From the NCBI RefSeq assembly GCF_013167455.1, contig NZ_CP038328.1: a DNA stretch of 64,000 nt. One strand, 5' to 3'. Made by a program: the position numbers. The stretch comes from Escherichia coli O157:H7 (GTDB taxonomy: Bacteria; Pseudomonadota; Gammaproteobacteria; Enterobacterales; Enterobacteriaceae). Positions 15,001-18,000 of this stretch are shown here, piece after piece (position 1 is the first letter of the stretch; every line of letters begins with the position of its first letter).

Positions 15001-18000
15001 CATCGCGTTATGGGCAGTGGAGAGCAGGTAATCGCGATTTTTACCCACGTCGTAGCTGATGCCAATACTCAAGGTAAGCGGGAAGGGGTTATCGTCAATC
15101 ATTATCGGCTTGCTGACCACATTCCGTAGCTCATCGGCGATCTGGGTAATGTTACTGACGTCGTTTTCCAGGCTCACGAGGACAAACTGCGTACCTTCGA
15201 TACGACAGAGATACTGATCCGGTTTGAGTTTTTCACGAAAGCGATTGACCACTTCCAGCAATGCCTGATCGGCCCACGCATAGCCAAGGCTATCAATCAC
15301 ATCCTGAATATGGTCAACACCGATACTGGAGAGACGGCTTTGTCGACCAGGTCATCGAGGTAATTGTGCAGGTTATTGCGATTTGGCAGACCGGTCATCG
15401 GATCAAATTGGATGAGTTGTTCAATATGCTGACGGCTTTTTTCCTGTTCCAGCGCCAGCGCGGCCATATGCTGGCTGATATCTGCCACGCGTTCGATAAA
15501 GGCGCTGGTTTCTGCTCCTGACGAGGTTTTAATTTGCAGGATCCCCGCAGGCGCGCCATCACGCTGACGAATGGTCGCTGACCAGCTTTGCGCATTTTGA
15601 ACTTCTGCACCGTGCGAAGATGACGCCCAGTGTATCGGCATCCCGTTGCGCAGTGCGAACAGCGAAACATGCGATTCGTTGAGAACAGATTCGATGTTAC
15701 GACAAATGATTTCCCCCATTTCATGAAATGGCGGGCTGCTGCACATGGCGGCGAGAATATTGCCTTCAAGCTGGCGGATTTGCCGTTCTTCGGTGATATC
15801 CGAGAAGGTCATTACCAGGTTCTGCAGATGCGCGAGCACGTCATAAACCGGGCTGATAGAAGCTTTAATCCAGATTTTTTCACCGGTGCGCGTCAACAGC
15901 AGAAATTCGTCCTGATCGCGGGCGGTTTTCCAAAGCAACTGTTGTAAACGAATGCGGTTATCGGCAGGGAATTCAGGAATGTTCAGGAGTGTATCAGGCT
16001 GCATACCGCTGGCTTCGCTAATGCAGTAACCAAACATTTCGGTAAATGCGCGATTGCACTGCACAATATGGCGTTCCGGATCGAGGACAATCACCGGTCG
16101 GTCGAGATGGTCAACGGCAATAATCAATTGCCTGGTCTGTTCTTTTTGCGCCATTTCTACGCTGGCATCCCGTACCAGCGCCAGGTAATAAACTTTCCCC
16201 TCGGCGCTCACTTTCGATAGCGCAAAACGGGTCCAGATTTTACTGCCGTCTTTTTTCTCCAGCTGCAGCTCCCGACTCATCCCCTCGACGCGCGCTTTAC
16301 CGCCTTCACGGTTGTGACGAATGTATTCAGGATGCGCAGGACGCAAATCCCGCGGAATCAGCATATCAATGTTATTGCCAATGACTTCTTCACGTTTGTA
16401 CCCCCAGAGCTTCTCTGCGGCGGGGTTGAAAAACATCACTTCATCATTTTCGTTAATTAACACCGCACCCATCATATTTTGCTCAAGGGCGGGGAAAAAA
16501 ATGCCATCGGCGGCATTATCCGCATCGGTTAGCTTCATGATTACCTCTGCATCCTGGCGCATCTAAAGACTGGCTTTCCAGAGTTCAACACGGTTTCTAC
16601 CTCGTCTTTTGGCGATATACAGAGCTTCATCGGCTATTTGAATGAGGCGCTCATAGTCAGGATGACCATTAAACATGGCGGCACCGATGGAAAGTGAGAG
16701 GGCAATATCTTCGCCGTTTGCGGCTTTCAGTTTGGTTTTCTCCACCCGACTGCGAATACGTTCTGCGGTACGTAACGTTTCGTTTTCAGAAGCTTCAGTC
16801 AAAACAATGATAAATTCATCGCCCCCGTAGCGGAAAACATAATCACTACTGCGGACGTTGTCATAAAAGGCCTGAGAGACTTTACGCAGAATTTCATCGC
16901 CAGTGTTATGGCCCCACGTATCGTTGATCTCTTTGAATTTATCAACGTCAATAATCAGCACTGACAGCGGTGTACCGGTCCGGTTGGCATGGGCAATTTC
17001 GCGTTTGAAGATAGTCGGCAGGAAACGGCGGTTAAGTAATTTCGTCAGTACATCCATACCGACTTCGTGGCGCGATACTTCTTCAAACAATTCACGCAGC
17101 AAGGTAATAATTTGCGATACGGTATTTCTTATCTGTAATAAAAATTTCACCCGCAGACTTCTGTTATTCAAATTCCTGGTGTTACGCATGGTTTGATTGA
17201 AAATACCGTCGAAATCCTGAATCAGACGAGAGATATGGCCCACTTCAGCAATGCCGCTGAAATAATGTCGACCTTTATGGTTAAACCACAGGCCAAAATC
17301 AGCCTGGCTTAAAGGCAAACTACTGCCTAAATCAGAATCCAGCAGGATTTTATAGATAATATCTATTTCCCATGAAAGTATTGAGGCTATTTGCCGTTCT
17401 TTTTCTTCTTCGGCGTTTTCCAGTAACGAGAAGATACGATAGTTTTCATCTTCTTTTGAGGCACTACTGTCACTAAAGGTAAACGCGCGGGTCATCACTT
17501 CCATAGCGATATCAATACTGTTAATCGAGAAATGGTAGACCTGAAGTTTTTCTGCGGCAGAATAATCCGAAGAGAAGATTACCGGATAGAGGATCTTTTT
17601 CAGCACCCGAAACCCCATCTCGACAATTTCTACCGGAATTCCTATGCGGGCATGCACTTCCGCGACGGTATGCTGGATTTGTATTAGCCTTTCGACATCG
17701 TCAACCTGGGCAGAAAGCACGTTAATAATCCAGCGTTCCATCGCACTTTTCAACTGCCGCTCAACTTGTTCATTACTCAAGAATTCTTCGGCATGCGGGT
17801 CGATGCGGACAATTCGATAAAACTCGATACTCAGATAATGAGCATGCGCAACGGCAATTTCCGCGGCTTTAGCACGAATGGGCGGATCTGCCTGCTCGAC
17901 AAGTCCGGTCCACTCATCTTTCATTCTTTTAAAATACATCTCCATAATTCACACCCTTATAAGGCTGGGAAATCAGACGGAATCAAAATGAAACGCGACG

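Follow-up and report, generated by a model that had tools for sequence, protein, structure and literature searches.

The gene for the oxygen-sensing c-di-GMP (cyclic dimeric guanosine monophosphate) phosphodiesterase DosP is broken by a 10-bp deletion in a 64,000-nucleotide stretch of the genome of Escherichia coli O157:H7 (RefSeq assembly GCF_013167455.1, contig NZ_CP038328.1; the whole stretch is referred to below as the window). The deletion is a genuine inherited lesion and not a sequencing error, and it very probably arose once, on a haplotype already carrying the K487N substitution, turning dosP into a pseudogene in the main O157:H7 radiation. That dosP is a pseudogene in O157:H7 is already known and annotated, since RefSeq flags the gene as 'frameshifted' (in EDL933, as EDL933_RS10525, and in NJS001, F6321 and 2024CK-1897675) and a published study names the Sakai dosP as a predicted pseudogene (PMC7430833). 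This remark on Sakai was the sole mention found in the literature on dosP, yddU or pdeO in O157. The less ordinary addition, which we regard as moderately interesting, is that dosP has been disrupted repeatedly and independently across the O157 complex, with dosC, the gene for its partner diguanylate cyclase, mostly spared.

The 10-bp deletion in dosP

The features of dosP in the window are as follows (nt, nucleotides; ORF, open reading frame; SNP, single-nucleotide polymorphism):

14149..16538, minus strand: dosP (pdeO/yddU) pseudogene, 2390 nt against 2400 nt in intact alleles, 100% identical to EDL933 dosP
Between 15324 and 15325, minus strand: junction of the 10-bp deletion, at which the alignment shows ancestral GGTGTATCTC (gene nt 1215-1224) to be gone
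15297..16538, minus strand: ORF of the N-terminal fragment, in which 405 native residues are followed by 8 frameshifted ones (SVLTIFRM, 15300-15323) and then by a TGA stop at 15297-15299
14149..15351, minus strand: C-terminal frame, open from 15351; its first start codon is GTG at 15300-15298 (V417 of DosP), overlapping the upstream TGA
15088, minus strand: SNP A1461C (K487N), which predates the deletion and is also present in the intact alleles of O157:H7 4276, Gim1-1 and NE92

The original prediction described dosP as two ORFs in different frames that meet at 15297-15300, and the ORFs found on the minus strand bear this out. The upstream ORF (15297..16562) encodes 421 amino acids when read from an upstream ATG and ends in DKAVSPVSVLTIFRM followed by the stop codon; read from the true dosP start (MKLTDADN, at 16538) it encodes 413. 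The downstream ORF (14149..15300) starts at the GTG, encodes 383 amino acids and begins MIDSLGYAWADQ, while the same frame followed from 15351, where it opens, gives PGRQSRLSSIGVDHIQDV. The first in-frame stop of dosP is at codon 414, so that no single 799-residue polypeptide is encoded. The point at which the two ORFs meet is the stop exposed by the frameshift; the mutation itself lies 25 nt upstream of it, inside the range originally reported.

Alignment with MG1655 dosP contains one gap only, of 10 nt, which corresponds to coding-strand GGTGTATCTC at gene nt 1215-1224. Besides the deletion there are 33 differing positions (approximately 98.6% nucleotide identity). V405 is retained through a hybrid GTA codon and V406, Y407 and L408 are deleted. 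The K-12 sequence SPVVYLIGVDH cited in the original prediction and its guess that about 10 nt were lost were both right. In the comparison with reference genomes that it proposed, dosP of MG1655 and of O55:H7 CB9615 is intact at 2400 nt, in frame with the ten additional bases. Neither this deletion nor a second one, described below for strain 493/89, appears to be microhomology-mediated: there are 0 nt of microhomology at the breakpoints in the window and 1 nt at those of 493/89, and flanking repeats at the right spacing are absent from both.

We then searched 5426 complete E. coli genomes with a 40-nt probe centred on the deletion, for which a match is seeded only where the deletion is present. 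The exact junction was found in 276 of the 5426, at one chromosomal site in each. These genomes come from many laboratories, and wherever a serotype is stated for a junction-bearing strain, it is O157 or O157:H7. Each of the exact 413- and 383-residue products is found on 1000 or more public contigs. Over the 2.5 kb surrounding the lesion, the window is 100% identical to EDL933, TW14359, EC4115, Xuzhou21 and many other O157:H7 genomes. The Sakai genome has the same junction and its record reads 'pseudogene'; the Sakai and EDL933_RS10525 alleles are that of the window, identical over the entire gene.

These counts bear on the possibility that the arrangement of the two ORFs is a sequencing or assembly artefact, which the original prediction gave as grounds for its refutation, or that a programmed frameshift restores full-length DosP. 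Nothing speaks for either beyond the adjacency of two ORFs in different frames. A sequencing artefact is excluded because the junction recurs in 276 complete genomes and its products are on at least 1000 contigs; moreover, the ten nucleotides were lost from non-repetitive sequence, with no homopolymer at which a slip might have occurred. A programmed ribosomal frameshift was likewise ruled out. There is no slippery heptamer of the X XXY YYZ type anywhere in the 54-nt overlap of the two frames, a -1 shift would still leave three core residues missing, and relatives such as MG1655 and O55:H7 read through in a single frame with the extra 10 nt. We therefore give these explanations next to no weight.

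One of the flagged genomes departs slightly from the common allele. In 2024CK-1897675, dosP spans 2391 nt, with a change of T7 to T8 at gene nt 37 on top of the 10-bp deletion. This was considered as a frame-restoring second-site mutation and rejected, because the reading frame stays broken; the extra T may reflect either a further frameshift or an error in sequencing the homopolymer.

Predicted consequences for the DosP protein

DosP of K-12 (PdeO, YddU, Ec DOS; UniProt P76129) is an oxygen-activated c-di-GMP phosphodiesterase in which a heme-PAS domain is followed by a PAS-PAC domain, a silent cyclase domain (EGTQF) and an EAL domain. The gene in the window is at the orthologous locus downstream of dosC and has the same domain order, but it lacks the codons for V406-L408, is shifted in frame, encodes no 799-residue protein and carries K487N. 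Pfam places PAS domains at residues 25-124 and 149-250 of the N-terminal fragment, together with positions 3-36 only, of 161, of the GGDEF model. The C-terminal frame holds positions 38-160 of that model and positions 3-236 of 236 of the EAL model (E = 5e-71); its EAL domain is complete, and the EAL, DDFG and EGVE motifs are present. By both the alignment and this split, the lesion falls within beta-strand 1 of the degenerate GGDEF domain, as originally proposed. The heme-PAS crystal structure 1V9Y aligns with residues 1-139 (E = 6e-88), and heme binding is predicted from the sequence. Both halves match the full-length structures 9CDR, 9BGV, 9CMF and 9CLO, with E < 1e-250 for each fragment against 9CDR and 9BGV.

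In the DosP dimer, helices connect the four domains (heme-PAS, PAS-PAC, the EGTQF silent cyclase and EAL), and activity relies on signals from the oxygen-bound heme-PAS domain that are passed through the intervening domains (PMC11543664). The deletion falls just past the PAS-PAC/EGTQF hinge and the dimer-interface loop 384-395 (in the numbering of PMC11543664, which is UniProt + 8). Since it lies in a core strand of the linking silent cyclase domain, beyond both the hinge and the loop, the sensor half is predicted to be severed from the EAL catalytic half. Translation would stop after residue 405 and the eight aberrant residues, in beta-strand 1 of the EGTQF domain. The claim that DosP is truncated was thus sound as far as the truncation goes; it does not come directly after the heme-PAS domain, as had been stated, but after both PAS domains, the hinge helix and approximately 30 residues of the silent cyclase. 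The C-terminal half would most likely not be produced in useful amounts, and any that was produced would lack both the core strand of its first domain and the activating sensor. We infer from the sequence that the function of dosP has been lost.

Two observations weigh against a complete loss. The EAL half has acquired no further lesions, since in comparison with O55:H7 only K487N differs, and that change is also present in intact alleles; and the GTG start codon overlaps the upstream stop as GTGA. Some residual, sensor-less EAL activity might on these grounds persist. A rival reading is gene fission, in which termination-reinitiation at the GTG at 15300 would allow both halves to be made and to work, as a free heme-PAS oxygen binder and a sensor-less EAL protein. 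With the stop and start overlapping, reinitiation is conceivable; no part of the EAL domain or its catalytic motifs is missing, the isolated heme-PAS (1V9Y, 1S66) and EAL (4HU3) domains of DosP are stable enough to be crystallised, and many automatic annotations call the two fragments as separate proteins. However, a usable Shine-Dalgarno sequence was found for none of the 22 in-frame start codons: anything resembling one precedes the GTG at 15300 alone, and this AGGA, at 1 nt away, is far too close. A fragment beginning at V417 would also be missing the first quarter of the silent cyclase domain (about 35 of the 161 positions of the Pfam model), beta-strand 1 and the 384-395 loop among it, and the dependence of activity on a signal from the oxygen-bound heme-PAS through the intervening domains (PMC11543664) is hard to reconcile with a working free EAL half. 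Finally, in lineages elsewhere in the O157 complex the EAL domain has been destroyed or the protein cut short at codon 85, which argues that the whole gene is dispensable. We consider fission to be very unlikely, and loss of function to be the better account of the allele.

Origin of the deletion within O157:H7

To find intact alleles, the undeleted sequence was rebuilt on the O157 background and used as a query. Intact alleles were present in every O55:H7 strain among the top matches listed and in a minority of O157:H7. A 2400-nt intact dosP is carried by O55:H7 CB9615, RM12579, DEC5A and DEC5E, and also by 2013C-4465, which has no stated serotype. Among O157:H7, PV15-279 and F3113 have an intact gene encoding the ancestral protein, and 4276, Gim1-1 and NE92 have an intact gene with A1461C (K487N), as in the window. 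In terms of Manning clades, F3113 and PV15-279 belong to clade 9, Gim1-1 and F6321 to clade 7, EDL933 to clade 3, Sakai to clade 1 and EC4115 to clade 8 (PMC10758439, supplementary table 1). The deletion is carried by approximately 276 of roughly 290 complete O157:H7 genomes, the latter figure being an estimate based on about 300 genomes that are at least 99% identical over the gene, 276 of them with the junction.

Because dosP is undamaged in O55:H7, in clade 9 and in part of clade 7, the deletion must have arisen within O157:H7. It would be younger than the divergence of O55:H7, the sorbitol-fermenting O157:H- clone, Manning clade 9 and part of clade 7. Local haplotypes over 7 kb place G4735T first, A3783C (K487N) second and the deletion last; the order is free of conflict and fits a single origin. 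We are accordingly confident that the deletion arose once.

The core-genome tree is less accommodating. Eight strains that have a common mdfA truncation group together on it, including F6321, Gim1-1, NE92 and 2149 (PMC10758439). As a point against a single origin, this group mixes F6321, which is deleted, with Gim1-1, NE92 and 2149, which are intact, and strain 4276 falls outside it despite having the Gim1-1 local haplotype. The mdfA group and a single origin are not obviously compatible without recombination or homoplasy at one locus. Either the group is not a clade (paraphyly), or there has been homoplasy, or recombination has displaced dosP or mdfA.

As a phylogenetic marker the deletion is clean, setting the remaining O157:H7 apart from clade 9 and part of clade 7; we found no report of its having been used in this way. 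The stepwise evolution of O157:H7 has been traced by markers such as the uidA frameshift and the loss of sorbitol fermentation. The dosP deletion is similar to these in being a small disabling mutation that has become fixed across most of the clone and is not found in O55:H7 or early-branching O157; in contrast to them it is later, having occurred within O157:H7 proper, with clade 9 and part of clade 7 intact.

dosC and the repeated loss of dosP

The partner gene lies immediately upstream of dosP:

16563..17945, minus strand: dosC, oxygen-sensing diguanylate cyclase and upstream operon partner of dosP; intact, 460 amino acids, GGDEF motif present, WP_000426292.1

The two genes are on the same strand, 24 nt apart, and the gene order digH-dosC-dosP-ddpX is that of MG1655. 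The DosC protein of the window is identical to the K-12 and O55:H7 versions, and the 376 nt upstream of dosC are identical to O55:H7. The whole of dosC was read in seven loci, of which five encode the same unaltered protein as the window; the remaining two are those of 4276, with a single SNP, and of F6321, with a stop codon. Cells bearing the deletion would thus be without the oxygen-activated DosP phosphodiesterase and would still encode the DosC cyclase, and the push-pull of DosC and DosP on c-di-GMP would lose its degradative arm. From the published DosC/DosP model it is reasonable to infer that c-di-GMP made by DosC now lacks its dedicated phosphodiesterase. The oxygen-signalling results obtained for DosC and DosP in K-12 are not simply transferable to most O157:H7.

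dosP has also been hit by other lesions in sister lineages. In the sorbitol-fermenting O157 strain 493/89 the site deleted in the window is intact, and a different 10-bp deletion, of GCGTGATATG at nt 2061-2070 (L004:4383-4392), lies in the EAL domain and leads to a stop at codon 693. This lesion is a singleton among complete genomes. It is nevertheless real and shared, because its 692-residue product is found on 35 contigs and a 700-residue version in 3 more assemblies, including DEC3F (38 contigs in total). LSU61 has four SNPs in dosP, all of them protein-changing (E85* at L005:2575, A40V, H309Y and E757K), an unusually high count for this clonal complex; it is the only complete genome to carry E85*. 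Furthermore, FRIK804 is reported to have lost a 7.46-kb segment that includes dosP and most of the ddp operon (PMC7430833). Across the branches compared, three of the seven mutational events in dosP are inactivating.

As a species-wide baseline we took 60 genomes at even steps down the ranking of matches, scoring length changes only and not nonsense mutations. A full-length match was obtained for 55 non-O157 genomes, and in every one of them it covers exactly 2400 nt; another genome retains just a 109-nt remnant of dosP. Elsewhere, stop codons in dosP have been described for the uropathogenic (urosepsis) strain B-11870, and dosC is absent both there and from several other isolates (PMC5635171).

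This pattern suggests either lineage-specific relaxation of selection or selection for loss, between which the numbers are too small to decide. In the adaptive account, loss of DosP with DosC kept was selected in the O157 complex and so repeated, instead of being neutral decay. It would draw on the independent origin of no fewer than three lesions in a clonal complex that is very young (nt 1215-1224, nt 2061-2070 in 493/89 and E85* in LSU61), on the published FRIK804 deletion, on the proportion of inactivating events in dosP, on the constant length of the gene in the non-O157 sample and on the conservation of DosC. The numbers are small, however, the LSU61 lesion is in a single genome and the length-only baseline is blind to nonsense mutations. 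Relaxed selection on the whole region also fits, because dosC of F6321 has a nonsense codon, outside O157 too dosP has stop codons and dosC is missing from some isolates (PMC5635171), and the neighbouring ddp operon is decaying in some strains. On balance we think it doubtful that the losses were adaptive. The broader proposal, that those in typical O157:H7, in sorbitol-fermenting O157:H-, in LSU61 and through whole-gene deletion amount to convergent adaptive evolution rewiring local c-di-GMP signalling, is likewise doubtful and is put forward only tentatively. The independent lesions in sister lineages nevertheless make a modest, testable case for selection on the DosC/DosP signalling module. 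If selection were involved, removal of DosP may alter the control that has been reported over PNPase-linked RNA processing, poly-N-acetylglucosamine (PGA) and curli, as well as the reported effects on cyclic AMP (cAMP), indole and persistence, and the change would favour the clone's way of life in the environment or the bovine gut.

Genes of c-di-GMP turnover are known to decay in pathogenic E. coli and Shigella, and the case of dosP resembles these in being a lineage-specific disabling hit in a GGDEF/EAL gene that is otherwise conserved in the species (PMC5635171, PMC11327459). Other examples are the truncated YciR of enterohaemorrhagic E. coli (EHEC) O111:H- 11128 and GGDEF pseudogenes in Shigella (PMC5635171, PMC11327459). 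It differs from them in that the phosphodiesterase is lost and the co-transcribed cyclase kept, and in that different lesions have hit dosP in sister lineages.

Several further changes were seen around dosP in individual strains. F6321 combines the dosP deletion with a private nonsense codon in dosC and a private variant of ddpX; its dosC stop could mean that the cyclase, once unopposed, was lost secondarily, or it could be part of a general decay of the region. In PV15-279, ddpA is frameshifted. In the window ddpB (10722-11744, minus strand) is an intact 340-codon ORF with an extra C at 11710, whereas RefSeq flags the EDL933 gene as 'frameshifted'; since ddpB of the window is intact through this extra C, the EDL933 frameshift is either strain-specific or an error in that record.

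Elsewhere in the window, approximately 6.7 kb at 49766-56467 are absent from EDL933 at this site. They comprise a Tn3-family transposon with IS1133, the streptomycin resistance genes aph(3'')-Ib and aph(6)-Id, and a recombinase; the element resembles Tn5393. The transposon sits in an ECSE_1600-family autotransporter gene that was already frameshifted, and together with its flanks it has a 100% match only in FRIK1989 (NZ_CP111101.1). At approximately 44430-46080 (positions transferred from EDL933), the EDL933 annotation shows what is left of two genes beside the autotransporter pseudogene, a HipA-family toxin gene and a helix-turn-helix gene, each without its N-terminus; several decayed genes are clustered here.

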